Source: Alphaproteobacteria bacterium
Lineage (GTDB): Bacteria; Pseudomonadota; Alphaproteobacteria; RF32; CAG-239
Direction of reading: 5' to 3'
Length of the DNA: 64,000 bases
Assembly: GCA_017465945.1 (NCBI GenBank)
Contig: JAFTVD010000008.1
Coordinates: 14,091-78,090 of the forward strand
In this document: positions 39,522 through 61,711 of the stretch, piece by piece
How the letters are laid out: each line of letters opens with the position of its first letter
Position numbering within the stretch: position 1 is the stretch's first letter
Made by a program: the position numbers and the translations under genes
Notes under the pieces: model-generated
What the model saw: the letters and a program-made list of their open reading frames with translations, nothing else
Told to the model about the DNA's origin: nothing
Database searches by the model: none

Positions 39522-40100
39522 GTGGAAGAAAAATATTCTGCAGATGAAGAAAAGTCGATTCGAATTGGTATAGTAAGCCTTATTGCAATAATTATTATGG
39601 TATTCATGACAATATCGCATAATGCCTCTATCAAAAAAGAAGGTGATGGCAATACGTATAAAGTGTATGCTAGCTTTGGTCGAACAGACGGATTAAATGT
39701 AGGTGATGTCGTTAGAATGTCAGGAGTTTCTATTGGTAGGGTTATAGCATCTGAGTTAGATGCAGATTACAATTCTAAGCTAACATTTGAAATAGGTGAT
39801 GAATATAAAATACCTGATGATAGTAGTGCATCAATAATAAGCTTTGGTTTAATTGGTGGTAAATATGTTGAGATAGATGTTGGTGGTTCTGAGGATTTTT
39901 TAAGGTCCGGAGATAGTATTAGCTATACTCAAGACGCTCTAGTTGTTGAAGAATTACTTGATAGAATAATATCAATGGGAAAATCAAAAAATAAACCAAT
40001 AGATGATGATAGTGTTATAAACGATGACAAAGAAAATGATATTGATAATATAGAATATGAAAATACAAGTTTAGAAGAAAAGGGAGATAGCAATGAATAA
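39522..40100 (+). CDS. MlaD-like MCE-domain protein, paralog 1, with acidic tail
   Basis: GTG start with AGGAGA RBS. TM anchor, then MCE core YKVYASFGRTDGLNVGDVVRMSGVSIGRV..GLIGGKYVEID. D/E/N-rich C-terminus. Confidence 0.75.
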   Translation: MEEKYSADEEKSIRIGIVSLIAIIIMVFMTISHNASIKKEGDGNTYKVYASFGRTDGLNVGDVVRMSGVSIGRVIASELDADYNSKLTFEIGDEYKIPDDSSASIISFGLIGGKYVEIDVGGSEDFLRSGDSISYTQDALVVEELLDRIISMGKSKNKPIDDDSVINDDKENDIDNIEYENTSLEEKGDSNE

Positions 40101-40548
40101 AAAACCTGTTGAAACAATTATGGGATTAGTTGTACTTGCCGTTGCAAGCTTGTTTATGTTGTTTGCATATAAGGTATCAGATTTGCAAGTAGTAAAAGGC
40201 TATGAGATAAATGCTCGTTTTCTAAAAGTTGGAGGGCTAAATACTGGTGCAGATGTTATGGTAAATGGAGTTAAAGTAGGTACGGTCATTGCTCAAAGTT
40301 TAGATAAAGATGATTATATGGTTAATGTTAAAATGAGTATATCTCCAAAAATATCTTTACCTAAAGACAGTACTATTAGTGTTGCAGGTGATGGCCTAAT
40401 GGGTGATAAGTTTATAAAAATAGAACCAGGTAAAGCAAAAGATAAATTATTGCCAGGTGATATGGCTAGTAATGTTAAAGATGCCAAATCTTTAGAGGAT
40501 ATGGTTGGTGAAATAATATTTATGGTGACTGATAATGAAGATAAGTAA
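40093..40548 (+). CDS. MlaD-like MCE-domain protein, paralog 2
   Basis: 151 aa: TM anchor, MCE core YEINARFLKVGGLNTGADVMVNGVKVGTV..GLMGDKFIKIEPG. 8-nt overlap with paralog 1. Confidence 0.75.
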   Translation: MNKKPVETIMGLVVLAVASLFMLFAYKVSDLQVVKGYEINARFLKVGGLNTGADVMVNGVKVGTVIAQSLDKDDYMVNVKMSISPKISLPKDSTISVAGDGLMGDKFIKIEPGKAKDKLLPGDMASNVKDAKSLEDMVGEIIFMVTDNEDK

Positions 40549-41266
40549 TAGCTTAAAATTAGGAATATCTGGTTTGATCTTAAGCTCAAGTCTTTCTATG
40601 GCTACAGAAATAGATACAAATTCTGCTCTTATGCAGGCGATGGATAAAGTTACAGGAAGGGTAAATAAAATTACTGTTCCTGTTAACTCAAAAGTATCAT
40701 ACGGTGATTTTTCATTTGTATTACGTTCTTGTAAAAAACGTCCTGCAGAAGAAACTCCAGAAAACTTTGCTTTTGTAGATGTTGCAGATAAAAGTTTTGG
40801 AGAGGAAGAATATAATATTTTTAGAGGTTGGATGTTATCTTCAGCTCCTGGTGTTAACGCAATAGAACATCCGATATATGATGTTTGGTTGTTAGAATGT
40901 GTGGATTCTGATATATCAAATGCTGTATTTCTAACAAAAGAAGAGTTAAATGTTAGAGATAATTTACCAAGTAAAGATATTATTCAGGCTCAAAAAGATG
41001 ATATAAATATTCATGAAAGTGGTGAAAATATTCAAGAGTTAAAAGCAAAAGAGCCAAAAGCTATTCATATTGAAAATTTTATTCAAAAAGATAGGGATAT
41101 TGAAAAAAATATAAAAATACCAACAGATGAGGTGAATATTTCTAAAGAAGAAATGCCTGAGAATTTATTAGCCCAAACAATAGGCGAAAATAAAGAAGAT
41201 ACAGAAACAAATGATGAATTATCTAAGGCTATAGATGAAGAAATCAAAAAAATAAACGAAGATTAA
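40535..41266 (+). CDS. DUF2155-domain protein with a ~110-aa charged C-terminal extension
   Basis: Signal peptide, then ALMQAMDKVTGRVNKITVPVNSKVSYGDFSFVLRSCKKRPAEETPENFAFVDV (DUF2155-like pattern). The mlaD-DUF2155 neighbourhood is typical of Alphaproteobacteria. Confidence 0.6.
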   Translation: MKISNSLKLGISGLILSSSLSMATEIDTNSALMQAMDKVTGRVNKITVPVNSKVSYGDFSFVLRSCKKRPAEETPENFAFVDVADKSFGEEEYNIFRGWMLSSAPGVNAIEHPIYDVWLLECVDSDISNAVFLTKEELNVRDNLPSKDIIQAQKDDINIHESGENIQELKAKEPKAIHIENFIQKDRDIEKNIKIPTDEVNISKEEMPENLLAQTIGENKEDTETNDELSKAIDEEIKKINED

Positions 41267-42816
41267 AAGCTAAAAATATAAATACATACAGATAATATTG
41301 CATATATAATAGATATAGAAAACAATATATTTTGTTTTGGTTTATTTGAAGCAAACAATTTTCCAATAAATAAAGCTTCAGGTAATAATAATAGGATAAA
41401 TAATCTATAGTCAGATGAGCATATATAAGGATAATCTAAAGCATATTTTATTGCATAAATCCATGAGCATAAATATGTTATTGCAAAAAATATCCATAAT
41501 GCCTTACAGGCTATATTCTTTCTCATAAATATATAAACCATACCAATAAATGCACAAACTTTTAATGATAAACTTAAAATATAAAGAATAAATGATGGGA
41601 TATATATTGATTTATTTAATATACTAAAATTCCATTCCCCAAAAAGCTCTGTTTTAATGATTGCTAAAATCATATTTGCATCAACATCATATGGCGCATT
41701 CATAAAAGGAGAAAATAGTTTAGAAAAATCACCGATTCTATCTGTAAGCGATAGATATTTAAAATTTTGCCCCATAGGAGATGTGTCAGGAACATTATAG
41801 AACTGCATATCAAATAGAATGTGGTTTCGCATAATCCATAATAAGGCAACAGGAACAGCAATAATTACAAACAAAGCTATCCCTCTAAGTACTAATTCTT
41901 TGTTTTTTTCTGTTGTTAATTTATATAAAAATACCCATGAAATAGCAGGAGCTAGCAGTAAAATAGACAATTTTGTTAATGTTCCAAGTCCAAGCCCTAG
42001 TGCAACCAGTATAATATAAATTAGTTTGTTTGTATAATACCATTTAATCAAGAAATAAGTTGTAAACACACTCCAAAATAATACTGGAACATCATCAGAA
42101 ATATACCCCGTAAATAAGATAAATGTTGGGTTAAATATAAGTAGTATAAAAATAGCTTTATATGTAACGCCTCTAAACTTTAATAGATATAAAATTTTAG
42201 CAATTAAAACAGAAGTGATAGTAACATAAAATAACGAGAAGTATTGTAAGCTCTCAATGGATATTGTTTGAGATTTCCATAATAAGGTGCTAAACCTTAA
42301 AAAGTACTCCATAAGAATAAAGTGTAGTGGTTGATGAAAGAAATAGTACATATACCACGGATCAAAATTTTTCCAGTTGATGCCGTTCTCTGCAATTTTT
42401 TTCATATAATAAAGCGTTCCGCTTAGGTCATGTTGTCTAAAGTCTATATCTGTATGCACAATGTAAAACAAGTGCACCAAAAAAGATATAAATATAGCAT
42501 AAAAAGTAAAGTGATGAACATTTTTATTATCATTAAATGCGGTATATATAATTTGCAAAATTTGAATAATTAATAAGAATTGATTACTAACAGAAAAATA
42601 AGCATTTAATACCAAAAAAATAATTGATATTAAAAATATAAAAAATCTATCAATATATTTTTTTTGCAAAAGTATAATAAATAAAGATATTGCAATATAA
42701 TTTATTTGATAGTTGTTTATATTAAAATTATAAAAAAACATGCCTGCCGTTATAAAAAACAGCAGACATGTTCCTAAAACAAATAATATTGGGTGTTTCA
42801 ATAATAAATTAAACAC
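41263..42816 (-). CDS. Polytopic membrane protein, GT-C (ArnT/PMT-like) glycosyltransferase fold suspected
   Basis: 517 aa with more than 12 hydrophobic segments. Loop DFRQHDLSGTLYYMKKIAENG...FFHQPLHFIL and later GYISDDVPVLFWSVF resemble GT-C family 39/83 loops. 13-nt gap to the upstream lipoprotein gene. Confidence 0.45.
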   Translation of the reverse strand: MFNLLLKHPILFVLGTCLLFFITAGMFFYNFNINNYQINYIAISLFIILLQKKYIDRFFIFLISIIFLVLNAYFSVSNQFLLIIQILQIIYTAFNDNKNVHHFTFYAIFISFLVHLFYIVHTDIDFRQHDLSGTLYYMKKIAENGINWKNFDPWYMYYFFHQPLHFILMEYFLRFSTLLWKSQTISIESLQYFSLFYVTITSVLIAKILYLLKFRGVTYKAIFILLIFNPTFILFTGYISDDVPVLFWSVFTTYFLIKWYYTNKLIYIILVALGLGLGTLTKLSILLLAPAISWVFLYKLTTEKNKELVLRGIALFVIIAVPVALLWIMRNHILFDMQFYNVPDTSPMGQNFKYLSLTDRIGDFSKLFSPFMNAPYDVDANMILAIIKTELFGEWNFSILNKSIYIPSFILYILSLSLKVCAFIGMVYIFMRKNIACKALWIFFAITYLCSWIYAIKYALDYPYICSSDYRLFILLLLPEALFIGKLFASNKPKQNILFSISIIYAILSVCIYIFSF

Positions 42817-42829
42817 AAATCAAATCCTA

Positions 42830-44677
42830 TTAAATGTCATCAGTAGAGCAAGCTGTACCGATTCTGCATTTGTGATATACTTTTGCTCTTCTATAGCCTG
42901 TTAAACCTTTATATTCCATTGTTTGAATATATATATTATTAACAGTAATAGTAAATCCAAGTACAGCAACATTTCCAGAGTTATCTAAAGCATACACTTT
43001 TATACGGTGGCTACCTGCATCATCAAGAGTTGGATGACCTGTAAATGTATGAGTTTTTTCATCATACTTTAACCATGTTGGAAGTCCAGCATCATCAAGA
43101 GAGCCTGCAACAGTCTTGTATTCGCCATCCCAATTTACTTGTTCAAATACTTCATCTGGAATTTTAATACTAACATCAGTGCCAACACCTGTAACAACAT
43201 CAGGTACTAAAACTTGTGATGAAATATCAACAGGAGGCTTTTTATTAGACAATGGTGCATTTTCTTTTGGTGATGCTACAAAAATACCTTCTTTCCAATT
43301 ATCTAAAGTTTCTCTAATTTTGATTGCAATTTTAGAAGGATTCTCAGAAAGCAATTCCATTGGAATAGTGTCCATGCCTACACTAGCATACAATCTACCA
43401 ATAGATTCTTGAACATCAATATAAGATAAGAAAGCATTAGCTTCATCAATTATTGCTCTAGCCGATTCTAGGTGGCTAATAGCTTTATCAGCACCTTCTT
43501 TATCTGTGATATCTTCTGCAATATCTTCAGATGTTGTAGCAACACCTAAATCTAGGTAATAATCTTCAACAGAAGCTTGGTATAAAGCCCATGCTAAATA
43601 TACTTGGTTAAGTACAATATTAGTCATACGTTGACGAGCAAGGGAATTATATGTAGCTTCATTTTGATAACGTATATCCTCAAAAACATTCATAGATAAA
43701 TCATTCGATTCCTTTGACCATTTACGATTATAGTAATTAGGGTCTTGGCGATAATCGCTATTATCAATTTCTTCCATGTCTTTTATAACTAATTCTAATT
43801 CTTCTTTTGTCGTAATAGTGTCAAAAGAACGCAATTCTGGACGATTCGTCAAAGCTAGCCATTCAAGTTGCTGTAATTTTGCTCTCATAGAAGGAACAGG
43901 GAAATTTCCATATTCAGCACCTGCTAATTTTATTTCAGTAGATGGATACATTCCAAGCAAGCCTGCAAATTCAGCTTGAGCTGTGTCAAATTTTTTCCTC
44001 AAATCAGCAAGCTCTCTAATGCTTTCTAAATATTTACGTTTTTTAAGCAATAAACTTGTAGAAGGAGTCTTGCCTGCTTTAATTAACTCGTTAGAACGAG
44101 AACTTAATTCATCAACCACTCTAACAAGGTATTCGTTCATATCATCTATAACAGGGATAATACGTTGAGCACTTAATGCTTTCCAATACAAAGTGCGAGC
44201 CTCTAACATAATGTTGTTTATAACTTTTCTGCTTTGTTCTTCAGCAACAATATCTTGAGCAACGGCATTTTGATAATAAAGAGAAGATAAGTCTAGTAAG
44301 TTCCAAGACACTTTCAAATCAGCTGGTACAGCATCTGAATAAGAAGCATTTTCATAACCTAGATTTTCTGCCATTGTTGGTAAAACAGAAGGAGATATAT
44401 TTGTTTTTATAAGGTTTTCCTGATAGCTGGCCAATCTTCTAGTGTAATTGTATTTGAGAGCTAAAGCCATAGCCATATACATATCAACAGGTTTAGTAAT
44501 TTTTGATGGAGTACCTATATACATATTTTGCATGTCTACATCAGCCCTAACAGCTCTATCCCAGTCTGAGTAATATGCAGACATAACAGGAGCTTCTGTA
44601 GATTGTTCATAAGTCGTAGTAGAGCAAGCTGTAATAATACTAACTAATCCACTAATAAAATAAATATACCTTTTCAT
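42830..44677 (-). CDS. Outer-membrane-factor (TolC/NodT)-like lipoprotein with a C-terminal cadherin-like/Ig (He_PIG-type) domain
   Basis: 615 aa. Lipobox SIITAC (Cys18). OEP-like helices (VDMYMAMALALKYNYTRRL, EEQSRKVINNIMLEARTLYWKALSAQ, LEWLALTNRPELRS). Residues ~488-581 match the dystroglycan-type cadherin-like pattern (GLPTWLKYDEKTHTFTGHPTLDDAGSHRIKVYALDNSGNVAVLGFTITV). Confidence 0.6.
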   Translation of the reverse strand: MKRYIYFISGLVSIITACSTTTYEQSTEAPVMSAYYSDWDRAVRADVDMQNMYIGTPSKITKPVDMYMAMALALKYNYTRRLASYQENLIKTNISPSVLPTMAENLGYENASYSDAVPADLKVSWNLLDLSSLYYQNAVAQDIVAEEQSRKVINNIMLEARTLYWKALSAQRIIPVIDDMNEYLVRVVDELSSRSNELIKAGKTPSTSLLLKKRKYLESIRELADLRKKFDTAQAEFAGLLGMYPSTEIKLAGAEYGNFPVPSMRAKLQQLEWLALTNRPELRSFDTITTKEELELVIKDMEEIDNSDYRQDPNYYNRKWSKESNDLSMNVFEDIRYQNEATYNSLARQRMTNIVLNQVYLAWALYQASVEDYYLDLGVATTSEDIAEDITDKEGADKAISHLESARAIIDEANAFLSYIDVQESIGRLYASVGMDTIPMELLSENPSKIAIKIRETLDNWKEGIFVASPKENAPLSNKKPPVDISSQVLVPDVVTGVGTDVSIKIPDEVFEQVNWDGEYKTVAGSLDDAGLPTWLKYDEKTHTFTGHPTLDDAGSHRIKVYALDNSGNVAVLGFTITVNNIYIQTMEYKGLTGYRRAKVYHKCRIGTACSTDDI

Positions 44678-44809
44678 AAAAGTTTCCCTCTAATATTATC
44701 CTTTAACTAAATGTCTACACTATTTTTTTTTTAATTGATAGTATTTTATTTGATTTTATACAACTTTAATGTAAAATAACATATAATGAAATAAAATTTT
44801 GGTGGGAAT

Positions 44810-45547
44810 GTGATGTTTGATATATTTTATACACTATTTAGATATAAGGATAAAGCACAAAACGAAGAGTTAGGTTATTATCCAGAAAAGGTTGATGTAA
44901 AAGCTTTTCCAGAAAGAAGATATTTGTGGACATCACGTTTTTTTGTTGTGATATCCTGTCTTAGTTTGTGTGTTAGTATGATTCTCGCAAGTGTGTTATG
45001 TATAATGATACCTAAGAAGAAATCTTATATTATGCCTCTGCAAATAGATTACAAACGTTATCAAGTAACAAGAATGGAGTATTCAGAATACGAAGCATAT
45101 GCAGGTAATCTTGTGACAGAAAGTGTTTTAAATGATTATATTATAAAAAGATATACAATAGGCGATTCGTTTGAGGAACTTACACATAGGTATAGTGATA
45201 ATGAATTTCTTAAATTAGCAACAAGTGACGACGTGTGGGGAGAGTTTGAGCAAACCGAACGACCATACTTTGAGGCAATGCAAAGACAAGGTGTTCGTCG
45301 TAAAGTAGAGGTAGAAAATAGTTACCCTGTATCATTTAATTTTTGGCAAGTGCGATTTAATACAATAGATACAATACCAGGAAAAGAAAAACCATTAATA
45401 AGTAAATGGCTAGCATCCATAAGAATGACTTTTAATTTTTCAAGATATGAGGATAAAGATTTAGGATTAAAAAATCCATATGGTACTAATATTGTTACAT
45501 ATAATTTGTCATATCTCGGAAATAACATCAAAAGTGTAAGAAAATAA
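44810..45547 (+). CDS. VirB8/DotI-like type IV secretion inner-membrane component, orphan copy
   Basis: 245 aa bitopic protein (TM helix FFVVISCLSLCVSMILASVLCIMI). By-eye alignment to A. tumefaciens VirB8: MPLQID vs EPFVVRVD, FWQVRF vs LIQVRY, KWLASIRMTFNFS vs HWVSILNFSY, KNPYGTNIVTYNLSY vs INPLGFQVSEYRSD. Confidence 0.6.
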   Translation: MMFDIFYTLFRYKDKAQNEELGYYPEKVDVKAFPERRYLWTSRFFVVISCLSLCVSMILASVLCIMIPKKKSYIMPLQIDYKRYQVTRMEYSEYEAYAGNLVTESVLNDYIIKRYTIGDSFEELTHRYSDNEFLKLATSDDVWGEFEQTERPYFEAMQRQGVRRKVEVENSYPVSFNFWQVRFNTIDTIPGKEKPLISKWLASIRMTFNFSRYEDKDLGLKNPYGTNIVTYNLSYLGNNIKSVRK

Positions 45548-48708: not shown

Positions 48709-49261
48709 CCGGATTTCCTCGTTTTGTTTGTAATGAGTGGAAATATGCACCCAATCTTAATGAGATGTCATTTGCAATAATTTTAGCTGCATTTTTTTCA
48801 TTTTTCTTTTGAGCAAACGTTGTTGAATATGGGTCTCTTAAAATGTCATAACCTAAATAAGCAACACTATTTCCATTAATCAAAGTTTTGTGCTCATTGT
48901 TTTTTAGAACATACGTTACTTTATAAATAACTTTTTTACGAGTTGCTGTAATATCATTTCTTAGGGCTTGGTCAATCTCTTCTTTATTAATTTGAGTAAC
49001 ACTTAAAATATATTTAGGGGATTTGGGTTCACCTTTGGGGGTGAGTTTATCAAGCAAATCGTTACGAATTAATTGTCCAATTCTGTCTTGAATAAGATCA
49101 ATTTTAACACTTGCCATTTCTTCTTTAATTCCAGTATCAAACTCACTATCATAATACCATTCACTACTAGATTTTTTTTCAACATAAAGTGGTTCAAATC
49201 CACATCCAGAAATGAACACACAAAGCACTAAAAGTGCAATATTTTTTCTACTATACAACAA
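48698..49261 (-). CDS. lptE: LPS-assembly lipoprotein LptE
   Basis: 187 aa: lipobox FISGCGFEPLY. Lies between the leuS relic and holA. Confidence 0.7.
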   Translation of the reverse strand: MLYSRKNIALLVLCVFISGCGFEPLYVEKKSSSEWYYDSEFDTGIKEEMASVKIDLIQDRIGQLIRNDLLDKLTPKGEPKSPKYILSVTQINKEEIDQALRNDITATRKKVIYKVTYVLKNNEHKTLINGNSVAYLGYDILRDPYSTTFAQKKNEKNAAKIIANDISLRLGAYFHSLQTKRGNPDEY

Positions 49262-50234
49262 TGTTTACAATCCTATTTGGTATAACAATTACTTTTTTAG
49301 GTTTAATTTTGGTAAGTTTTTCTGCGATATTATCTAAAGATTTAGCAATTTTAACCACCTCATCATTATCTAAATCACGTTCAACTTCAATTACCCCACG
49401 CACTTTGCCATTAATTTGAATAGCAATCGTTGCAGAATTTTCTTTAGCAAGTTCTATATCACCACTAGGCCAATTCTCGTTCATAATAAGAGTATTATAA
49501 CCTAACCTTGCCCACATTTCATCTGCTAAATGTGGTGCAAAAGGTGACATCAGTTTTAAAAGTACCTCATAACATATTTGAGGGATTTCTTTTAATTTCG
49601 CTAAATAATTTACATAAGTCATTAATAAAGAAATAGCCACATTAAACTTCAACTGTTCGATTCCTTTACTAATACTTATAATAGTCTTATGCATAATTTG
49701 CAAATCTTTTCTGCTAGGAGTAACAGGAGTAATTTTGTTAAATAATCCAAAAACTTTACCAACAAATTTATGTGCTCCATTTAGACTATCTTCAGACCAT
49801 TTTACATTTTGATTAAATGGCCCAATAAACATCATATATATCCTAAAAGCATCTATTCCATATGCGTCAATCATTTCATTAATATTAATTATATCATCTG
49901 AATATATTGATGTTTTTCTATTATTTACATCTAGCGTATCGCTTCCATTCATTTTCTTATGGCGAGTAATTACATCCAAACCAATATAAAAACGTACATC
50001 ATTTATATTCAATTTAACATCATTGTACAAAAAGTTTGCTAGTGTATAATTCCTCTTTTTCTCAATAGCCGTTTCTGTTTTATATACCCCCTCATCAAAC
50101 CATATTTTATGCCACTTATTTTCAACAGTTTTGAAGTTGTATCTATCTTCTAAATCCCAATCTTTTTTCCATTCTTCAAAACTTTCTTTTCCATTATATC
50201 TGGCACTAACTACCATTTTGGAAATCCCCATCAC
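49251..50234 (-). CDS. LeuRS-derived ORF lacking the catalytic core and editing domain (in-frame relic or repurposed tRNA-binding protein)
   Basis: 327 aa versus ~850 aa for LeuRS. The N-terminal ~70 LeuRS residues are present but the HIGH motif reads NIND. The match then resumes just after the KMSKS position (MIDAYGIDAFRIYMMFIGP). The anticodon-binding and C-terminal domains are intact (IQINGKVRGVIEV..VIPNRIVNIVV). See finding. Confidence 0.7.
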   Translation of the reverse strand: MMGISKMVVSARYNGKESFEEWKKDWDLEDRYNFKTVENKWHKIWFDEGVYKTETAIEKKRNYTLANFLYNDVKLNINDVRFYIGLDVITRHKKMNGSDTLDVNNRKTSIYSDDIININEMIDAYGIDAFRIYMMFIGPFNQNVKWSEDSLNGAHKFVGKVFGLFNKITPVTPSRKDLQIMHKTIISISKGIEQLKFNVAISLLMTYVNYLAKLKEIPQICYEVLLKLMSPFAPHLADEMWARLGYNTLIMNENWPSGDIELAKENSATIAIQINGKVRGVIEVERDLDNDEVVKIAKSLDNIAEKLTKIKPKKVIVIPNRIVNIVV

Positions 50235-50319
50235 TTAATTTTAATCAAATGTTTGCCAATAACTTATCATATCGAAAAAAAAATACAATGATTTTAAATG
50301 TTTTATTTATTTTACTGAT

Positions 50320-51861
50320 TTAATTTTTGGGAACAGCCACAATGTATCTTCCAAATTCTTCAATGTTAAAGTTGTAAAGGAAATATCTATTATTTTTTGT
50401 GGTGATATAAATACAATCATTTGAAATTTTTTCTGTGTTAAGGCCATCCTCAAAACGATAATGCAAAAAACCAGCTGATTCTAGATATGCTTGCGGATAG
50501 TTTCTCCATACACTATGGCGAATATAATCATTCACAGGAATTTTTTGATGCCACAAAACTCTCGGGTAAATAGTATGGCCATCTGTTATTATAATATTAT
50601 ATTTTTTTACTTCTCTTTTACTATTGGCAAATACTAAAGCCTCTTCTAAACCAATAGAAAATTCTTGTTCAGCAAGTTTGTTATAATTGTTAAAATATTC
50701 ATAGCAAAAAAGTATAAAACTACAAAGATATATAGCTATAATAGAGGTAATTATTATCTTTTTCTTGAAAAAAGTAATCCCTAAAACAATTAACCAAACT
50801 AGAGGGAAATATAAAAAATTAAGTCTTGTTGGTGATGGATATATTCCTATTCCATAAATTATTCCAATAATAAGCCATAATACCATCGGTAAATTATAAG
50901 CAATTTTTTTATTTTTTAATTCATAATATAATTTTTGTATCAAAGATATTACCCCTAATATCATAAATAATAAGGAAAACGGATAGAATAGACCAAATTT
51001 AGTGATATAACTATAAATAAAAAAATCTGTTTGCTCTATATATATACTATAAAGGGCTGCCAATTTAATTGGTAAATTATCATATCCCCATTCACTACTG
51101 CGCCAATATAAAAGTTTGGGTACGGATATATATGTACCTCTAATTTCATCAATGTAGCCATAATTAACCAGTAAAAGCAACAAAAGAGGTATATTCAAAA
51201 TGATAAATAAACATCCACTTCCTAAAATATGTAAAAAATTACTTTTATTGATATACCACAAATATCCCATAGAAAATAATGCGATAAAAAAAATAGGAAC
51301 CCATGTTATAGCATAAGAGTATAAAGCAATACTATAAAACAAAACACTTAAATATAAATACTTTATCTTTTTTAATGCTTTTAAATAAAAGTAAAAACCT
51401 GTTAACATACCAAAGGTACAAGCAGAACTTTCTAATCCCCAACGAGATTGAACAATATGCCAAGGAATAATGGCTATAATAAGAAAACCAATAAGAGCAG
51501 TTTTTTTATTATAGCATATCTTAAGTGAACGATAAAAAATATAACAACTTAACACTCCAAGTATAGCTTGAGGTAGTCTTAATACCCATGTTTTAGCATC
51601 TAAAAAATAAAAAAATACTCTCAAAAGATATGAATAAAAGACATTCATTCCACTTCCCCAAGAAATGAAATAAATCGGATTAGTATACCCCCAACTATCT
51701 ATTCCATATTTTGACATTGACCAAGCTTCATAACCAGCAAATGCTTCGTCTTGATTTATTCCACCTGGTATAGAGCCTAAATAAACAAAGCGAGAAATAA
51801 AAACGGTAATCAAAATTACCCAAAATAAAATATCTGCGACATTAAACTTTTTACTCATCAT
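50320..51861 (-). CDS. GT-C fold glycosyltransferase, family 39/83 (ArnT/PMT_2)-like
   Basis: 513 aa polytopic protein: first-loop GGINQDEAFAGYEAWS (DE motif) and VLRLPQAILGVLSCYIFYRSL..IIPWHIVQSR. ATGA overlap with the mlaC-like stop. Confidence 0.65.
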   Translation of the reverse strand: MMSKKFNVADILFWVILITVFISRFVYLGSIPGGINQDEAFAGYEAWSMSKYGIDSWGYTNPIYFISWGSGMNVFYSYLLRVFFYFLDAKTWVLRLPQAILGVLSCYIFYRSLKICYNKKTALIGFLIIAIIPWHIVQSRWGLESSACTFGMLTGFYFYLKALKKIKYLYLSVLFYSIALYSYAITWVPIFFIALFSMGYLWYINKSNFLHILGSGCLFIILNIPLLLLLLVNYGYIDEIRGTYISVPKLLYWRSSEWGYDNLPIKLAALYSIYIEQTDFFIYSYITKFGLFYPFSLLFMILGVISLIQKLYYELKNKKIAYNLPMVLWLIIGIIYGIGIYPSPTRLNFLYFPLVWLIVLGITFFKKKIIITSIIAIYLCSFILFCYEYFNNYNKLAEQEFSIGLEEALVFANSKREVKKYNIIITDGHTIYPRVLWHQKIPVNDYIRHSVWRNYPQAYLESAGFLHYRFEDGLNTEKISNDCIYITTKNNRYFLYNFNIEEFGRYIVAVPKN

Positions 51862-52514
51862 AGCCCCATCATACGTTCTATAGCGTCTTCATTAGCAATA
51901 ATTTTATCATAAAATTTTTCTAAAAACCAATCAATATCTTCACCTTCATCCACAATCATTTGATAAAATCTTTTTCTATATTCGATAACCATACTAACAT
52001 TTGATATTTCAACATCAACAGCTTGAATTTTATCTCTATTGTTTCTAATTAATTTAAATTTAACAGGTATTCTATCAACTTCTAAACCTTCAACAAGTTC
52101 GCCAACATCAACAGAGCATGTAACTGTTGTATAGCGTTCAAACTCGGAAACATTATCTATTGTAAAATCAACATTATCAGTATTAAATTTAAGATTAATT
52201 TGTTTGTAAAGACTTAAAACATATCTCGTAAATAAAGAACTATATCTTCTTTTTTGTTCTTTATTCATTTTTCTAAAATATTTTCCAATAACAAATTTAG
52301 AAATATAATCAAGGTTAACATCCTCTAACATCATTTTATCTAATTTGGCATGCTTCTCAACAATATTGCTCATTCCTAAAATGTTGATTAATTCTTGCCC
52401 TTTGTCATTCGCCCAAATTTTCGCTTCTTGACGAGTTATAGATACATTTTGAGCATTTGTAATTCCAGAAAAAAGTAACAATACCAAAAGTAAAATATTA
52501 AAAAGTTTATTCAT
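51858..52514 (-). CDS. MlaC/Ttg2D-family periplasmic lipid-binding protein
   Basis: Start trimmed to MNKLFNILLLVLLLFSGITNAQ (signal peptide). Core VNLDYISKFVIGKYFRKMNKEQKRRYSSLFTRYVLSLY matches the MlaC-family pattern. Confidence 0.65.
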   Translation of the reverse strand: MNKLFNILLLVLLLFSGITNAQNVSITRQEAKIWANDKGQELINILGMSNIVEKHAKLDKMMLEDVNLDYISKFVIGKYFRKMNKEQKRRYSSLFTRYVLSLYKQINLKFNTDNVDFTIDNVSEFERYTTVTCSVDVGELVEGLEVDRIPVKFKLIRNNRDKIQAVDVEISNVSMVIEYRKRFYQMIVDEGEDIDWFLEKFYDKIIANEDAIERMMGL

Positions 52515-52576
52515 TTTGTCCTCAACAATAAGTTCCATGCAGTAATTATACATAGCACAAATAAAAAAATAATTAA

Positions 52577-54031
52577 TTATTTTAATTCAACCAAATATTC
52601 AAATGAAGTTTTTTTATAAAGAGTGTTGATTATACTAGGAATAAAAACTTGAGAATATTTTGTCTCTCCATAAGTTCTCAAAGCTTTTAAGTCTACATAG
52701 TTTTTCATATAAACAAATTTGGGTTTTTGAGTTAATATCAAATTATTTACATCAACAAGATTTTTTATACTAAATTCTTGTTCCATAACAGGGATAAGCA
52801 TATCAAGACCAAACCAGTAATAACTAGCATCTTTTCTGTATATATTAAAATTTTTATCATATCCGTTCATTAATAAATCATTAGGTGATGAGTTTTCGTG
52901 AACATATTTTGCTAATTGATAGTGCTTAAAACTATCGTGTTTTTCCGATGTTCTTGAAATAGTGTTAAAAATTAAACCTAAATTTAAAAATAAACCAATA
53001 ACCAACAAAATGCTTATAATTTTATATTTTCCTACAATATCCGAAACAGCTCCCGAAACAACAAGCCCTAACAAAATAGCAAGTAAGGTGTAATAGTTAG
53101 GGTGTGGTGCAAAATAAAATCCACGCATTAAAAATTCTGCTACATATAAGATAGATACAATTTTAAAGTAAATATTTTTCTTTTTATAAAAATATAACAC
53201 AACAAATATCCCAAACAAATAAATTGTTGAAAATATATTTTGATACCAAAAAGCGCCTCTTTCAAAATAATATACAAGAGCTTGGTTAAATCTAAAATTA
53301 AGCGAAAAGTATTCAATTCCGGCACCATTTAAGATTATATATGTGAAAAAAAGACAAACTAAAGCAATAGGTGGTATTGCAGAAACTATAACATTTTTTA
53401 ACTTTATTTTTTTTGTAATAATTTGCCAAAGTATAATTAATTCAATAACAATTAAAATTAGGCCAATTTTTTGCAAAAATAAAAGAGATACCGCGAAAGA
53501 TGTAAAGCTTATCACTAAATTTAAAAGTTTTTTATTTTCAATATAACTAAACCAATAGTATATTCCTAATAAAAAGAATAAATTCATATAATTGTCAGGT
53601 CTAAATTGATAAAAATTATAAGCAGTTATAATGTTGCAAAGATAAAAGGAAATTCCAACCAAACCACCACTTTTACTAGTAAAGAACAAAGATATTTTAT
53701 ACATGTATAATAATGTTACGATTGATACTAAAAAACTAATACCTCTTACAACATAAAATACAATAACATCATTATAAAAAAACTTTACAATAGGTGCAAA
53801 AATATACCAAATCAATGGGTGGTGATGCTCAAAAAAATCTCTATATGGAAATAATCCTTCACTAACAAGCCAAGAGGCATGCAAATGTTCAAACTCATCT
53901 ACGATTTGAAATCCAGAAAATATAAGGCCATACAATATAACTAGTAATGCCACAACAATAAAAAGCTTTAACGCATGAATAAAAGCGTTTTCATCAAAAT
54001 CAATTAATTGTTTTTTTATAAAATTCTTCAT
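52577..54031 (-). CDS. GT-C fold glycosyltransferase-like polytopic membrane protein
   Basis: 484 aa: first-loop VDEFEHLHASWLVSEGLFPYRDFFEHHHPLIWY and FRPDNYMNLFFLLGIY, resembling ArnT/PMT_2-type loops. Confidence 0.55.
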   Translation of the reverse strand: MKNFIKKQLIDFDENAFIHALKLFIVVALLVILYGLIFSGFQIVDEFEHLHASWLVSEGLFPYRDFFEHHHPLIWYIFAPIVKFFYNDVIVFYVVRGISFLVSIVTLLYMYKISLFFTSKSGGLVGISFYLCNIITAYNFYQFRPDNYMNLFFLLGIYYWFSYIENKKLLNLVISFTSFAVSLLFLQKIGLILIVIELIILWQIITKKIKLKNVIVSAIPPIALVCLFFTYIILNGAGIEYFSLNFRFNQALVYYFERGAFWYQNIFSTIYLFGIFVVLYFYKKKNIYFKIVSILYVAEFLMRGFYFAPHPNYYTLLAILLGLVVSGAVSDIVGKYKIISILLVIGLFLNLGLIFNTISRTSEKHDSFKHYQLAKYVHENSSPNDLLMNGYDKNFNIYRKDASYYWFGLDMLIPVMEQEFSIKNLVDVNNLILTQKPKFVYMKNYVDLKALRTYGETKYSQVFIPSIINTLYKKTSFEYLVELK

Positions 54032-54069
54032 AAATATGCCAAATCAAATAAATAGAGATAAAGCGGTTT

Positions 54070-55635
54070 TTAAGCCGCTTTTTTCTCTTCATGATAGTCA
54101 GATTCTGTGTTTACAGACCAAACCTCTTCTCTGTTACTTATTTTTCCTAAAATCAAGTCGACAGTTTTCATCGCAGCAAGTGTTGAGTGGTCCATATTAT
54201 TATATCTATGCATACCATTTCTACCTACTAAATACAAATTCTCAATTTCATTAACATAGTTTTTAACTTCATCAAATTTGTCATAAGTGCCAAAATATGC
54301 CGGATATGCTTTTTTTACCTTATGAGTATATGCGTCAACAACGTCATTTTTATCAAAAATTCCAATTTTGTCTGCTTCATCAACGGCAAATTGAATGAAT
54401 TCATCATCCTTATCAGTCCAAATTTTATCATTTTCATTACAGAAATATTCTAGACCAATCCATACCTTATTTTCAAAATCATCAACTAAATAAGGGCTCC
54501 AGTTATTAAATACTTGAACTCTTCCAAGTTTTACTTCTCTTTCTTGTACATAAATCCATGTATCAGGAACAATATTATTTATAGTTTTTATAGGTGTTGT
54601 ATTTTTTAGTTTTAACTTATCTAATAAAACTCCAACAACTCTAAAATCACGATACATTAATCCACTAGCTACTTCTGTGATATTACTTGGAACATCATTC
54701 ATTGCTTCAACCAAGTCTTTAACAGGCATGGTAGAAACAAAAATATCACCTTCGTAAACTTTTTTATTTCCCTTACTATCTGTTGTTTCAATAGCTACAA
54801 TTCTGTTATCTTTTTTAATTACACGTGTAACTTTTTCATTAAATATAATTTCTCCACCTTTTTTTACAACAAGATCAGCCACACTTTGCCACATATGACC
54901 AGGGCCAAATTTAGGATAAAAGAAACTTTCAATAAAACTAGTCTCCACAGCGCCACCTTTTTTACCTGTTAGGCTCTTAAACATTTGCTTTATAACTTTT
55001 AAAATTGAGATTCCTTTAATTCTTTGCGCACCCCATTCTGCAGATATTTTATTACAATCTATACCCCATAATTTTTCAGTATAATCCTTAAAGAATGTAA
55101 GATATAATTCTCTACCAAACCTATTAATCATAAAATCTTCTAACGATTTTTCATCTTTTATAGGGAATACAAGGGCTTTCATATAAGAACACCCAATTTT
55201 AAACATTCTCCATAGGCCTAGCCCCTTTATTGTGTCCATGTTTAGGCTTACAGGATAATTAAAGAAAGTCTTTAAATAATAGATTCTAGATAGCCTATTT
55301 CTTTTAAGCATAACTTTATCTGTTTTTTCAGGGTCGGGAGCTTTACTTTTTTTAGATAACTCAACAACTCTATCAAGTATTATATCATCTTTTGATGGTT
55401 TGCCCTGTAAAGGTAAAATATCTAACCACCAATTCATAACTCTTTCAGATTTAGAAAAGAAACGATGTCCACCCATATCTATTTTATTGTTCTTATAATC
55501 AAGGGTGGCACTAATTCCACCAACAAAATCATTTTCTTCTATGATAATAGGTTTAATATCTGATTGTTCCAATAATTCGTAAGCAGTTGTCAATCCCGCA
55601 GGGCCGGCACCAATAATAATCGCTTTCTTGTTCAT
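54070..55635 (-). CDS. FAD/NAD(P)-binding oxidoreductase (amine-oxidase / UDP-galactopyranose-mutase-like superfamily)
   Basis: 521 aa: N-terminal [19 protein letters not shown] dinucleotide-binding motif, GGISAT..GGHRFF, C-terminal [16 protein letters not shown]. Confidence 0.75.
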
Positions 55636-55737
55636 AAAATCCTCTCTTCCTAATAAAGTTATGCAAACAAATTAACAGATAATATATTTTTTTCAATATT
55701 GATATTTTAGGGTGTTAATACTTGAGAGTATAAAAAA

Positions 55738-55756
55738 AGAGTGGCTAGGCCACTCT
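55738..55756. terminator. Palindromic terminator after pgk
   Basis: Perfect 18-nt palindrome GAGTGGCCTAGGCCACTC within AGAGTGGC/GCCACTCT, flanked by an A-run (plus strand upstream) and a T-run. 17 nt past the pgk stop on the minus strand. Confidence 0.8.
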
Positions 55757-58294: not shown

Positions 58295-61200
58295 TTATCT
58301 ACCTTCTACTTTTCTTCTTACAACCATATCAACATCTTTGACGTTGAGATTTTTTTCTAATTCTCTAGTTGGTATATTATCTGCAACTTTTTCTGTAGAC
58401 ACAATTTCTTTTCCATCATATTCGTAACCTTTATGTAGGCTAAATGTGTCATCAGTTTTCTCTTCAGCATATGTTATAGTTCCTTCTCTTTCTTCAAAGA
58501 TTGGTTCTGGTGAAACATTTTGGGTAGGGCGCATATAGTATCTATCAAAGCCATCACTACCTGGGTTTGTAACTCCGCTAGAAGCTTGTTCTGTTGTATA
58601 ACTTCCAGCTTCTTCGCAGGCTCCCGCTGTAAAGTAGCGAACCATTACAGGGCTTGTTCCTGTTACACCATCAATAGTACCATTTTCATTTACGCTATCA
58701 ATAACTTCTTTGATTTTTGTTGCATTTTCCACAGAAATGCTATCATCGCACTCTTTTAGATAATCTACTACATTTGTAATTTCTTTGGCAAATTTACCAT
58801 GCTCGTCATTTGACCAAGCAATCATTTGCTTAATAGAAAACATAGATTGTTCAACACTTAAACCTTCGAAAATACCACCTTTAGCACGCATTTCATCTGT
58901 TATTCTTGCTGCATAATCATCATATGCATCTTCGCCAAAATTATCTTTAAAGAATGTTTGCATTAAGTTATATTGCTTTTCTGTAATACCAGTATTTTCA
59001 AAACCTCCACGTTCTGGAACATTTCCAGCAGCCGGTGTTCCAACTTCTACTTCATCAGAATCAGCAATAACCTCTGTTGCGGTTTCATCAAAAATAATTT
59101 CAGCTTCAACTCCGGTATAAATACCACCTGTTGCAATAACTTCAGTATTGGTAACCTCTATTGCAGCTTCATCAGTAACAATTTCAGCTTCAACTCCTGT
59201 ATTAACACCACCTGTTGCAATAACTTCAGTATTGGTAACCTCTATTGCAGCTTCATCAGCAACAATTTCTGCTTCAACTCCAGTATTAATACCACCTGTC
59301 GCAACAACTTCTTCTACAGCTGCGCCTTCAACAACTTCAGTTGAAATATTTTTACGAACAACCATTTCTTGATCTGTTACATTTAAATTTTCTTCTAATT
59401 TATCTGTTGGAATTTCACTTCCAATTAATTCCTCATTACCAATATTATCGGCTTTATATAAATCAAAAGAATTGTCATTTGTATATACGGTAGTTGAAGA
59501 GCCTTCTCTTTCTTCGAAAATAATCTCTTCTGTTTCAATAGTTGGAGTTTCTTCTATAACTTCAACTATTTCTTCATCGCAACCACAATCGTATGTTTGT
59601 GAATGAAGTACCGCTTTTTCTCCACAATTAACATCACGTCCGGTAACCACAACACAATCTTTACCTTCTACATCTTTGATTGCACCATTATCTAAAACAT
59701 CACTAAGTTTAGTTACATCATCATTAGTGATTTGTTCATCACAACCAAAGAAAGCGTCTAACTTTGCAATAGTTTCACGGTGTTGAGGTAAATTCCAAGA
59801 AGACATTCTTTCATACTTAAATAGTACTTCATCTCTAGTCATACCTTCAAATTGACCACCCGCTTGAAGCATGCTATCATCAATTTTGCAATAAAATTCT
59901 TGATATTTGTCAGAATTTCCCCAAAATGATTGTAATCTTTTCCATTGAGCTTTAGTAATACCTGTTTCTTCACTCCATTCAGTTGGGGGTGTAATTTCAA
60001 CATTTGATACTTCCATATCATTACTAAGGTTATTAGCTTCAACCTCTTGCTCTACAACAGCACTTTGTAAAGATACACTATCTGCTTGATTTGTTAAGCT
60101 ATCATTAGCTTCAAAGCTTTTAGCAAACAAAGTATCAACTTTAGCTGTATCAACTTCAACAGAAGCTGTATCAGCAGCTAAACCTGTTTGCTCATTAACA
60201 TTATTAAGTAAGCTATTAGCCGCTTTATTTGCAGCTGCATCTCCTAAATCAGCTGTGCTTCTTATATCAGGATTTTCGCCGTCGCAACAATTAACCATAA
60301 TGGCACTAACACCAATAAATCCTGCAACTGTAAATGCTTTATCCCAAAAATCTTTCTTCTTATTTTTTAAAGTGTGAACAGTGTTTATTGTATTATTAAC
60401 AGAAGATACAGCCAAACTTGATAATCTTTGTGCGCTTCTTGCAGCAATAGCTCCAACGCCACTACCTAAACTTCCTAAAGCACCACTTGCAACAGCTCCA
60501 GCAGCACCAAGTCCAACTAAACCAGCAGCACTACCCCAGCCAGCTTCTTTATAGTATGCTTTACGTTTTTCTTTGTTGCTAAATATGTTATTAGAAGCAT
60601 TTTTAAGTCTATCTAAAAATCTTACTTTAGGTGCTGTATTACCTTCTTTTTTAGCAACTTCTTTCTCTAAACGCTTTGTTCTTCTTGCTTCTGTAATAAT
60701 TGGCCATACCCAAGAAGATGCAGCCTTATATGCGCCATATGCTACAACAGCAGTTCCAAGCCAAGGAGCACTTGTAGCAGTACCAACAATTAAACCTGCT
60801 GTAGCTGCAACATCTGTAATTACCTTTGGAGATCTGTCTTTCAAGTTTTTAGCAAACTCATATCTTTGTCCCCAAACTTGTTTTGCTTTTTCACTAAATG
60901 AAGTTTTAGCCTTGTTTACAAAAATGCTTGCCTTAGAGAAGCATTCTTGAGCCTTACCTTTTGCTGATAAAGCTTTGTCAGCTAGCTTCTTTCTATAGCT
61001 TTCAGCTTTTACTTCGCTTTCTGCGCATGCTGTAATCACTAAATCAGAAGATACTTCAATTTTTTCTTCCATATCAATAGCTTTATCTTGTAAAGCCATA
61101 TTTCCAAGAGCTTCTTGTTGTTTTACAAAAAATTCTTTATCATCATTAACAACAGCATCAGCTGCATTTGGGATATTATTTTGTATTTGAGCAGCAGTAC

Positions 61201-61711
61201 GTAATTGAACTAAAGTCCCTAAAAATGAATCTTTAACTTCATCAAATAATGTTTCTCTTTTTTCTTCAATAGATTGGCTAGCAAAATCATGACTTCTAGA
61301 TTGTTCAAGCATAACATCAAGTTTTGCTTTCTCAATCAACATATCAATATGTTTATTTCTTTCTTCTAAAGATACCCCTGCACCATCTTTTCCATCAACA
61401 ATAGGAGTATTGTTAATTGCTGTTTTAACATCACCATCGCTTAACAATGAGTTCTTGATATCATCATTGTCTAATTCATTATATAAGAATTCTGTATTGT
61501 CAGCAAGTTCTTTTGGACTTGCTGTAATAACTTCAGCTTCTTCTTGTTTTTTCTTAAACGCTAATTCATATTTGTGAGCTTCTTCTAATGATTTAGCAAA
61601 TTCTTCATCATTTTTTCTAACTATTTCTAATGCTTGAGCAAAAGTTTTTTCATCAGCTTCAATGTATCCGCCGGCAATCTCATAAGCTGTGTCCAAATCC
61701 ATGTTACTCAT
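58295..61711 (-). CDS. Giant orphan protein (1138 aa): helical N-terminus, glycine-zipper TM cluster, duplicated ~220-aa module, 28-aa tandem repeats
   Basis: Single uninterrupted ORF with its own 228-bp upstream region and its own terminator. TM/Gly-Ala-rich segments at aa ~297-340, 391-427 and 455-475. Module A aa ~578-787 and module B aa ~900-1134 share GIT.xQ[WY], GGxFEG[ML][ST], IFEEREG and NLNV.D..MVVR[KR]. No family recognised. Confidence 0.8.
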   Translation of the reverse strand: MSNMDLDTAYEIAGGYIEADEKTFAQALEIVRKNDEEFAKSLEEAHKYELAFKKKQEEAEVITASPKELADNTEFLYNELDNDDIKNSLLSDGDVKTAINNTPIVDGKDGAGVSLEERNKHIDMLIEKAKLDVMLEQSRSHDFASQSIEEKRETLFDEVKDSFLGTLVQLRTAAQIQNNIPNAADAVVNDDKEFFVKQQEALGNMALQDKAIDMEEKIEVSSDLVITACAESEVKAESYRKKLADKALSAKGKAQECFSKASIFVNKAKTSFSEKAKQVWGQRYEFAKNLKDRSPKVITDVAATAGLIVGTATSAPWLGTAVVAYGAYKAASSWVWPIITEARRTKRLEKEVAKKEGNTAPKVRFLDRLKNASNNIFSNKEKRKAYYKEAGWGSAAGLVGLGAAGAVASGALGSLGSGVGAIAARSAQRLSSLAVSSVNNTINTVHTLKNKKKDFWDKAFTVAGFIGVSAIMVNCCDGENPDIRSTADLGDAAANKAANSLLNNVNEQTGLAADTASVEVDTAKVDTLFAKSFEANDSLTNQADSVSLQSAVVEQEVEANNLSNDMEVSNVEITPPTEWSEETGITKAQWKRLQSFWGNSDKYQEFYCKIDDSMLQAGGQFEGMTRDEVLFKYERMSSWNLPQHRETIAKLDAFFGCDEQITNDDVTKLSDVLDNGAIKDVEGKDCVVVTGRDVNCGEKAVLHSQTYDCGCDEEIVEVIEETPTIETEEIIFEEREGSSTTVYTNDNSFDLYKADNIGNEELIGSEIPTDKLEENLNVTDQEMVVRKNISTEVVEGAAVEEVVATGGINTGVEAEIVADEAAIEVTNTEVIATGGVNTGVEAEIVTDEAAIEVTNTEVIATGGIYTGVEAEIIFDETATEVIADSDEVEVGTPAAGNVPERGGFENTGITEKQYNLMQTFFKDNFGEDAYDDYAARITDEMRAKGGIFEGLSVEQSMFSIKQMIAWSNDEHGKFAKEITNVVDYLKECDDSISVENATKIKEVIDSVNENGTIDGVTGTSPVMVRYFTAGACEEAGSYTTEQASSGVTNPGSDGFDRYYMRPTQNVSPEPIFEEREGTITYAEEKTDDTFSLHKGYEYDGKEIVSTEKVADNIPTRELEKNLNVKDVDMVVRRKVEGR
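59060..59311. repeat. Three tandem 84-bp (28-codon) repeats inside the giant gene
   Basis: Exact 84-bp period (the same 14-mer, apart from one mismatch, starts at 59097, 59181 and 59265). Encodes EV[VI]ATGG[IV]NTGVEAEIV.DEAAIEVTNT three times. Copies 1 and 2 differ at only a few bases; copy 3 is more diverged. Confidence 0.9.

Follow-up and report, generated by a model that had tools for sequence, protein, structure and literature searches.

In the GtrABC and ArnC-ArnT systems, a sugar is activated in the cytoplasm, carried by a lipid, and transferred in the periplasm by a glycosyltransferase of the GT-C fold that has a catalytic acidic first periplasmic loop. The pentofuranose three-component systems combine PPPRS, a MATE flippase, and a GT-C enzyme of family GT136 (Kelly et al. 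2024, PMC11127046); in these, as in the mycobacterial decaprenylphosphoryl arabinose (DPA)/Emb/Aft system, a furanose is added in the periplasm by a GT-C enzyme from a polyprenyl-phosphate donor, and auxiliary epimerases or oxidoreductases diversify the sugar. We compared with these systems a cluster of four genes, g1 to g4, located in a 64,000-nt stretch of contig JAFTVD010000008.1 (metagenome assembly GCA_017465945.1), hereafter the window, to which all coordinates refer.

The source organism, an uncultured alphaproteobacterium, has a low GC content (31%), and the window also encodes GcrA and the lipopolysaccharide (LPS) genes kdsD, lptC/A, lptB, and lptE. The genes of the cluster, all on the minus strand, are g1 (54070..55635; 521 aa), encoding a cytoplasmic FAD-fold enzyme of NCBIfam family NF005546 related to eukaryote-type UDP-galactopyranose mutase (UGM); g2 (52577..54031; 484 aa), encoding a GT-C-fold glycosyltransferase (PMT_2) that is the conserved partner of g1; g3 (51858..52514; 218 aa), encoding a secreted lipid-binding protein of the MlaC/Ttg2D fold; and g4 (50320..51861; 513 aa), which lies between g3 and leuS and encodes a GT-C protein (PMT_2) of a subfamily other than that of g2. 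A first-pass annotation had described four co-directional minus-strand genes with gaps of 38 and about 62 nt and an ATGA overlap, and both the list of open reading frames (ORFs) and the sequence agree with it: the g1-g2 gap is 38 nt, the g2-g3 gap, counted from the g3 start at 52514, is 62 nt, and g3 and g4 overlap by 4 nt (ATGA, 51858-51861). The longest ORF of g3 spans 51858-52553; the ATG at 52514 is the one used by the gene callers and by all relatives, and the protein read from it has a signal-peptide-like N-terminus, MNKLFNILLLVLLLFSGITNA (followed by Q). The motifs GAGPAGL, GGHRFF, DEFEH..PYRDFFEHHHPL, NQDEAF, RLPQA, and PWHIVQSR were confirmed in the translations, and profile searches returned the domains assigned to the four genes by that annotation (PMT_2 twice, MlaC, and an FAD fold). 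The arrangement is best explained by a conserved pair, g1 plus g2, linked across phyla, and not by a single four-gene machine made of g1-g4.

Genomic linkage and identity of g1 and g2

Two sets of loci were compared, one of 36 loci taken from metagenome-assembled genomes (MAGs) of related alphaproteobacteria of gut, rumen, or animal-associated origin, referred to as the clade, and one of 70 environmental contigs whose g1 homologs are 48-59% identical. In 35 of the 36 clade loci g1-g2-g3 stood between pgk and leuS. Outside the clade, only g1 and g2 were found together. In the sister lineage L047, where g1 is 69% and g2 36% identical to the genes of the window, the two overlap by 4 nt and are flanked by a divergent GtrA gene and a NAD-dependent sugar epimerase gene, and MlaC is absent from the locus. 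The two genes are 2 nt apart in L004. A Methylomagnum plasmid carries a g1 homolog with GT39 and GT2 genes, and a Novosphingobium plasmid one with genes for GtrA, polytopic proteins, a methyltransferase, and a glycosyltransferase.

Among the environmental loci, a polytopic protein, defined as one of at least 400 aa with at least 6 transmembrane (TM) segments by a crude hydrophobicity count, was the direct neighbor of the g1 homolog in 31 of 70. The rate of polytopic proteins was 24-27% at positions +/-1 from g1, compared with 0-11% at positions +/-3 to 6. A GtrA-like protein was encoded within two genes of g1 in 14 of the 70 loci. In 6 there was a match to the g2 family, in each case no more than two genes from g1 and in the same orientation. 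MlaC was found in none (0/70). Genes for UDP-sugar (4-epimerase-like) epimerases adjoin the g1 homologs in L047, L060, L088, and L121.

Another scaffold of the same assembly (scaffold_817, locus L048, GC 0.314), which likely belongs to the same genome, has linked genes for a PMT_2 GT-C protein (33% identity to g2), a polytopic protein of 555 aa, a methyltransferase, and a GtrB-like GT2 enzyme whose C-terminal part has two TM helices and which has two polytopic proteins beside it. The gene content of this scaffold resembles that of the Novosphingobium plasmid cluster containing the g1 homolog. Since assembly and GC content are the same, the genome of the window probably encodes a GtrB-like GT2.

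As to g1 itself, the Pfam scores were 47 bits for Amino_oxidase and 41 bits for NAD_binding_8, and the protein reached 804 bits (cut-off, 418) against NCBIfam NF005546 (PRK07208.1-2), an equivalog named "hypothetical protein." Its best matches in the PDB, over g1 residues 4-386, were the UGMs of Aspergillus fumigatus and Trypanosoma cruzi, at an E value of 2e-16 with the single sequence and of 6e-30 with the family profile. The UGMs turned out to be the only full-length relatives of solved structure, other flavoenzymes matching the N-terminal Rossmann motif only. The FAD Rossmann motif (GAGPAGL), the GGH flavin loop, and the Arg and Tyr residues that bind the UDP diphosphate are all present in g1, and so are the equivalents of A. 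fumigatus UGM residues G62/H63, F66, F158, Y162, W167, R182, W315, Y317, R327, Y419, R447, Y453, and N457; these positions are invariant (alignment A3) down to the 39%-identity homologs of Methylomagnum, Novosphingobium, and Gloeothece. Two UGM positions are changed, N163 to T, which is the residue of bacterial Glf, and Y334 to W, and the g1 proteins of the clade have two insertions with no counterpart in solved UGMs. Across the clade loci g1 is 77-90% identical, near the value for pgk (85-93%). We treat g1 as UGM-like in mechanism, judging by its conserved residues, without placing it within Glf, and most likely it is a putative nucleotide-sugar pyranose/furanose mutase. The earlier label of an FAD/NAD(P) oxidoreductase therefore stands with regard to the FAD fold, but its generic character does not, since the UGM active-site residues are conserved; the suggestion that the flavoenzyme supplies a sugar donor fits a UGM-like identity.

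Two fusion proteins of the g1 family were noted on environmental contigs. The one in L115 (4148-7270) combines the g1-family domain with ~520 aa of polytopic membrane domain, which had no Pfam match and no hhalign match to g2 and so cannot be called GT-C, and the one in L090 (3463-5901) combines it with a class I methyltransferase domain.

Could g1 serve g2 by redox chemistry rather than as a mutase, providing a modified pyranose donor by a DprE1-like oxidation or epimerization of a nucleotide sugar or polyprenyl-phosphate sugar? Pfam and NCBIfam place g1 in the amine-oxidase/phytoene-desaturase superfamily, the thresholds of canonical Glf are not reached, the N163-to-T and Y334-to-W changes and the two clade insertions set it apart from solved UGMs, and the fusions in L090 and L115 could mean a lipid-linked substrate at the membrane. 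Set against this are the invariance of the residues for the UDP diphosphate and uracil (R182, R327, R447, Y419, Y453, F158, Y162, and W167), the restriction of non-UGM flavoenzymes to the N-terminal Rossmann motif, and the UDP-sugar epimerase genes beside g1 homologs in the four loci named above. DprE1-like chemistry was moreover rejected as such, the Pfam search giving no FAD_binding_4 signal and g1 having no similarity to DprE1-type enzymes of that kind. We regard a redox role as rather unlikely and retain that of a putative mutase. A link to the hopanoid proteins HpnM and HpnE was likewise dismissed, since g3 scored 15.9 bits against TIGR03481 (cut-off, 160) and g1 scored 22.7 bits against HpnE (cut-off, 283).

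The assignment of genes 2 and 4 to the GT-C enzymes was upheld, both exceeding the PMT_2 (PF13231) gathering threshold of 26.1 bits, g2 with 30.7 and g4 with 36.1 bits. The AlphaFold2 (AF2) model of g2 (pLDDT, 89.8; pTM, 0.91) had only GT-C proteins among its significant Foldseek matches in the PDB, namely, ALG12, STT3/PglB, ALG9, ArnT, Pmt4, AftA, and Emb; the likeness to ArnT is one of fold only (TMq, 0.57; 11% identity). In loop 1 of g2 the residues D45, E48, H49, D65, H69, and H70 are invariant in the 41 sequences of alignment A2, and so is a second pair, P145-D146. For g4, the family-invariant residues N36, Q37, D38, E39, A40, D55, R95, P97, P133, and W134 are kept, the acidic loop residues D38, E39, and D55 being invariant in 120 sequences. 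Both proteins thus have the conserved acidic residues in the first extracytoplasmic loop by which GT-C enzymes are recognized, and the K-rich N-termini suggest that this loop faces the periplasm. Sequence searches of the PDB with g2 and g4 gave no matches. Neither matched the PMT model PF02366, which among the GT-C proteins was matched only by the one encoded at 41263-42816, and neither matched any NCBIfam family, hence no curated ArnT model; arnC, arnB, and arnA were not found at the locus. The identity of g2 across the clade loci is 51-65%.

The PMT-type DE motif in loop 1 of g2 and g4 is one of the observations consistent with the absence of any functional link, i.e., with g1 supplying the cytoplasmic Leloir transferases of LPS or capsule synthesis with UDP-galactofuranose (UDP-Galf) and with g2 and g4 being unrelated PMT-like protein O-glycosyltransferases that became its neighbors by chance. 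The known uses of UDP-Galf all involve cytoplasmic or Golgi Leloir transferases, such as the lactococcal WpsF (PMC10821137), and pilin-like and outer membrane protein (OMP)-like genes occur in variable slots flanking the cluster in relatives. Chance is hard to reconcile, however, with the enrichment of polytopic proteins directly beside g1 homologs on unrelated environmental contigs, with the confinement of g2-family matches to +/-2 genes of g1, with the g1/g2 overlap in L047 and the 2-nt spacing in L004, or with the fusion of a g1 domain to a polytopic membrane domain in L115. An unlinked g1 and g2 seem to us very unlikely, and the conserved pair is kept as the unit to be explained.

The MlaC-fold protein g3 and the accessory gene g4

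The description of gene 3 as a signal-peptide-bearing MlaC/Ttg2D protein was supported by the profile match (70.6 bits against Pfam MlaC, PF05494; cut-off, 26), the N-terminus, and a Foldseek search. The last was made with an AF2 model of pLDDT 86.7 and returned Ttg2D/MlaC 5uwb at an E value of 8.5e-9 and 8dte at a target-normalized TM-score (TMt) of 0.79. The score against the E. coli-type MlaC equivalog NF011697 was well below the cut-off (26.7 versus 195 bits). In an exhaustive search the g3 family profile graded smoothly into the general MlaC family (1,719 representatives at an E value of 0.001 or less), and the best 150 of these 1,719 were single-domain proteins of at most 279 aa with no fusions. 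The MlaC-profile scan of the genome collection reached this clade only, the peptide patterns being too specific.

Adjacency of g3 to g2 was seen only within the one gut alphaproteobacterial clade (the 35 loci mentioned above); in L018, g1 is followed directly by g3, without g2. Of the g3 relatives outside the clade whose loci could be inspected, the closest is encoded by a solitary gene, upstream of the tRNA synthetase genes gltX and cysS. Two single-MCE MlaD genes, placed by the first-pass annotation 11 kb from g3, were indeed found at 39522-40548, ~11 kb away. Its statement that the MlaC gene is detached from mlaE and mlaF held for the window, where neither was found, but this is not unusual, the solitary gene near gltX and cysS being a parallel case. 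Brucella, also an alphaproteobacterium, lacks MlaC altogether (PMC12436622), and Mla gene organization is therefore variable within the Alphaproteobacteria. Probably g3 is the ordinary housekeeping MlaC of the organism and the partner of the two MlaD proteins, and with regard to g2 it is most likely a clade-specific neighbor that became fixed next to it.

In contrast to the wide distribution of the g1-g2 pair, g4 follows g3 only in the species of the window and in L040 (70% identity of g4). L040 and L011 share 91% DNA identity over pgk-g1-g2-g3 and 97.7% at the start of leuS, and L040 differs from L011 by a clean ~1.58-kb segment with g4 that replaces a spacer of ~80 bp. In the window the homology to relatives without g4 breaks off at 51871 and sets in again at 50295, and in L040, g3 and g4 share a boundary base. 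Hence, g4 is an accessory gene, recently gained or lost among genomes that are otherwise nearly the same. The overlap of g3 with g4, which the first-pass annotation took for translational coupling, came about with the insertion of g4 and does not point to a functional link of long standing. We also considered where g4 came from. A recent duplication of g2 or of the GT-C gene at 41263-42816 was rejected, as BLASTP showed no similarity. A transfer from Clostridia was not accepted either; the named relatives are clostridial (35-39% identity), but a 43% homolog exists within the clade, at an unrelated locus of the MAG that supplied L008, so that a transfer could have gone in either direction.

These observations bear on the choice between the conserved pair and the model of the first-pass annotation, which unites the four genes in a periplasmic module. 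In that model the flavoenzyme makes the donor sugar, the GT-C enzymes glycosylate a lipid, and the MlaC paralog takes this glycolipid, or else the donor linked to polyprenyl, across the periplasm. The constant order and strand of g1, g2, and g3 in the 35 clade loci and in L050, the short g2-g3 gap, the g3/g4 overlap in the window with its counterpart in the boundary base of L040, the equal rates of evolution of g3 and g2 (53-67% versus 51-65% identity across the clade), and the distance of g3 from the E. coli MlaC equivalog would all suit such a module. Several findings nonetheless speak against it. MlaC is missing beside g1-g2 in L047, in the plasmid clusters, and in all 70 environmental loci, and L018 has g3 but not g2. 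The gain or loss of g4 is recent, and the nearest MlaC gene from outside the clade stands by itself in a housekeeping context. None of the best 150 MlaC-family matches is long enough for a fusion to a GT-C protein, and overlapping genes (e.g., leuS/lptE and lptE/holA) are common in this compact genome. We find an integrated module distinctly unlikely. The presence of MlaC beside GT-C genes most likely comes from a gene order particular to this lineage, together with an insertion of recent date.

Flanking genes and transcription signals

Downstream of g4, at 49251-50234 on the minus strand, leuS is reduced to an in-frame remnant of 327 aa, whereas relatives have a full LeuS of 825 aa at this place. 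The remnant keeps LeuS residues ~5-96 and ~590-809 and has lost the catalytic core and the editing domain; its motifs are degenerate (HIGH to LNIND and KMSKS to RKTSIYS), its C-terminal part is 54-62% identical to relatives, compared with 80-90% for the neighboring lptE, and its structure recurs in three independent assemblies. Since the window has no other copy of leuS, a functional one must lie elsewhere. Insertion of g4 as the cause of the leuS deletion was rejected, because L040 has g4 together with a normal 5' end of leuS.

In relatives, g1-g2-g3 is bordered on either side by slots of variable gene content (L004, 4054-4698; L005, 3922-4704; L007, 2656-4819; L018, 832-1644; L031, 10724-11485; L008, 10848-11780). 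In L004 a type IVb pilin-like gene (PilS/Bundlin) lies just upstream of g1, and other slots hold signal-peptide-bearing OMP-like proteins without a Pfam match or, between g3 and leuS, a 310-aa protein. The genes of these slots could hint at protein acceptors or mark a recombination hotspot.

A hairpin (AGAGTGGC-CTA-GCCACTCT) followed by a T-run stands 3' of pgk (55732..55756, minus strand); it was read directly from the sequence, is absent from the list given by the terminator consensus scan, and is a probable terminator. Because of its position after pgk, the g1-g4 cluster probably has its own transcription start, separate from that of pgk. A small GC-containing hairpin with a weak T-run (ATCTCTATTT) lies across the g1 stop codon (54060..54081, minus strand) and was listed as terminator-like by the scan; it is a possible attenuator between g1 and g2. 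The promoter scan was uninformative, with 41 sites compared with 38 expected in AT-rich DNA.

Farther away, the region 39522-42816 holds the tandem short MlaD genes (192 and 151 aa), a DUF2155 gene, and then, convergently, a third GT-C gene (41263-42816), whose product matches both PMT and PMT_2. Many relatives have a homolog of the latter at the equivalent place downstream of clpX, and the clade seems to have a large GT-C repertoire, with g2, g4-like proteins, the third GT-C, and the P0335 and P0342 types. At 42830-45547, a 615-aa protein with a weak OEP (TolC-like) match and a He_PIG Ig-like domain is encoded beside a lone VirB8-like gene, and relatives keep the two together beside clpP-clpX. 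Between kdsD and lptB, a 434-aa ORF (19200-20504, minus strand) with an LptC domain (residues 45-211) and an LptA/LptD_N (OstA) domain (residues 313-410) looks like an LptC-LptA fusion. Finally, a 1,138-aa acidic protein without a Pfam match is encoded at 58295-61711 (minus strand), with a tandem repeat at 59068-59311 made of 2.9 copies of 84 nt (28 aa); in relatives this place upstream of gap-pgk is taken by genes for proteins of similar size (1,020-1,140 aa).

A proposed route and its place among known systems

The reading that we favor, with a probability of about 0.5, is that g1 and g2 serve a periplasmic glycosylation of the Gtr/ArnT type, probably with a hexofuranose, that g3 is an ordinary MlaC, and that g4 is an independent accessory gene. 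The data show the folds and families, the conserved residues, and the layers of synteny; the mutase activity, the sugar, the lipid-linked intermediate, and the acceptor set out below are proposals that build on them. In this route g1 would turn a UDP-hexopyranose into its furanose form, the conversion of UDP-galactose to UDP-Galf being the default guess, which fits the 4-epimerase-like genes adjacent to g1 homologs in L047, L060, L088, and L121. A GtrB-like GT2 encoded elsewhere in the genome would load the sugar onto undecaprenyl phosphate, a GtrA-type flippase would move the lipid-linked sugar across the inner membrane, and g2 would transfer it in the periplasm onto an envelope acceptor, be it LPS, another glycan, or a protein. 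The unrelated GT-C enzyme g4 would probably add a separate decoration, while g3 would most likely carry phospholipid for the two single-MCE MlaD proteins.

Several points weigh against this reading. The scores of g1 stay below the cut-offs of canonical Glf (41.5 versus 303.75 bits for TIGR00031 and 14.4 versus 26.3 bits for Pfam GLF), and NF005546 is a family without any characterized enzyme. A GtrA, a GT2, or an epimerase gene was not found within the 64-kb window, and of the polytopic environmental neighbors only a part could be assigned to PMT_2 or to the g2 type. That g3 has a housekeeping role is inferred, and the adjacency of g3 to g2 on the same strand, with gaps of ~60 nt, in ~35 species-level genomes also fits a functional link. 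In the incomplete library that was searched, we found no paper on a polyprenyl-phosphate-linked galactofuranose donor, nor any literature on the NF005546/PRK07208 family.

Two further-reaching claims are put forward with less confidence. That g1-g2 alone constitute the first lipid-linked hexofuranose (Und-P-Galf-type) route of periplasmic glycosylation is a tentative suggestion, on the doubtful side of even. That the MlaC of the clade was recruited to the g1-g2 route and carries a furanosylated lipid or lipid-linked donor between the membranes, as a glycolipid-specific MlaC acting together with a GT-C enzyme, appears improbable. What is worth following is the link, across phyla, between an uncharacterized family of UGM-like flavoenzymes and GT-C/GtrA genes. 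Were the favored route true, a function would be provided for a large family annotated only as "NAD(P)/FAD-dependent oxidoreductase." Since furanose sugars are, to our knowledge, absent from mammals, furanose decorations on these abundant uncultured gut alphaproteobacteria could then matter for immune recognition and as phage receptors. The resolution of a striking four-gene "operon" into an old pair, a clade-specific neighbor, and a recent insertion also calls for caution in predicting function from gene neighborhoods.

With respect to known systems, g3 shares with MlaC/Ttg2D of the Mla pathway its fold, size, and signal peptide, and single-MCE MlaD genes lie nearby, but it is not part of an mlaFEDCB operon, is very divergent from E. 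coli MlaC, and stands, in this clade, immediately downstream of a GT-C gene. The eukaryote-type UGMs (A. fumigatus, 3UKA/3UTE; T. cruzi, 4DSG) resemble g1 in length (~510-520 aa), align with it colinearly, and share with it the GGH flavin loop as well as the Arg, Tyr, and Trp residues that bind the substrate. The overall sequence similarity is weak, though, the Glf cut-offs are not reached, and the g1 family has extra insertions; its genes are tied to those of membrane GT-C and GtrA proteins and not to Leloir galactofuranosyltransferases.

The acidic first loop of the GT-C enzyme is common to g2 and to the GtrABC and ArnC-ArnT systems, GtrA-like flippase and GtrB-like GT2 genes occur at g1-family loci elsewhere, and the three steps of activation, lipid carriage, and periplasmic transfer would be the same. 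The locus differs from these systems in that it does not show the three components of Gtr, neither a GT2 nor GtrA being encoded in the window, in that g2 and g4 match neither ArnT nor any other NCBIfam model, and in that the Gtr and Arn systems have no counterpart of the UGM-like flavoenzyme g1. With the pentofuranose systems (PMC11127046) and the DPA/Emb/Aft system, the route proposed here would share the periplasmic addition of a furanose by a GT-C enzyme from a polyprenyl-phosphate donor. Homologs of PPPRS, MATE, and DprE1/2 are not present at the g1-g4 locus, and whereas the donors of those systems derive from PRPP via a phosphoribosyltransferase, a UDP-hexose and a UGM-like enzyme are implied here. 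If the enzymes of the g1 family are mutases that feed GT-C transferases, they would represent a hexofuranose counterpart, in bacteria, to the pentofuranose three-component systems.

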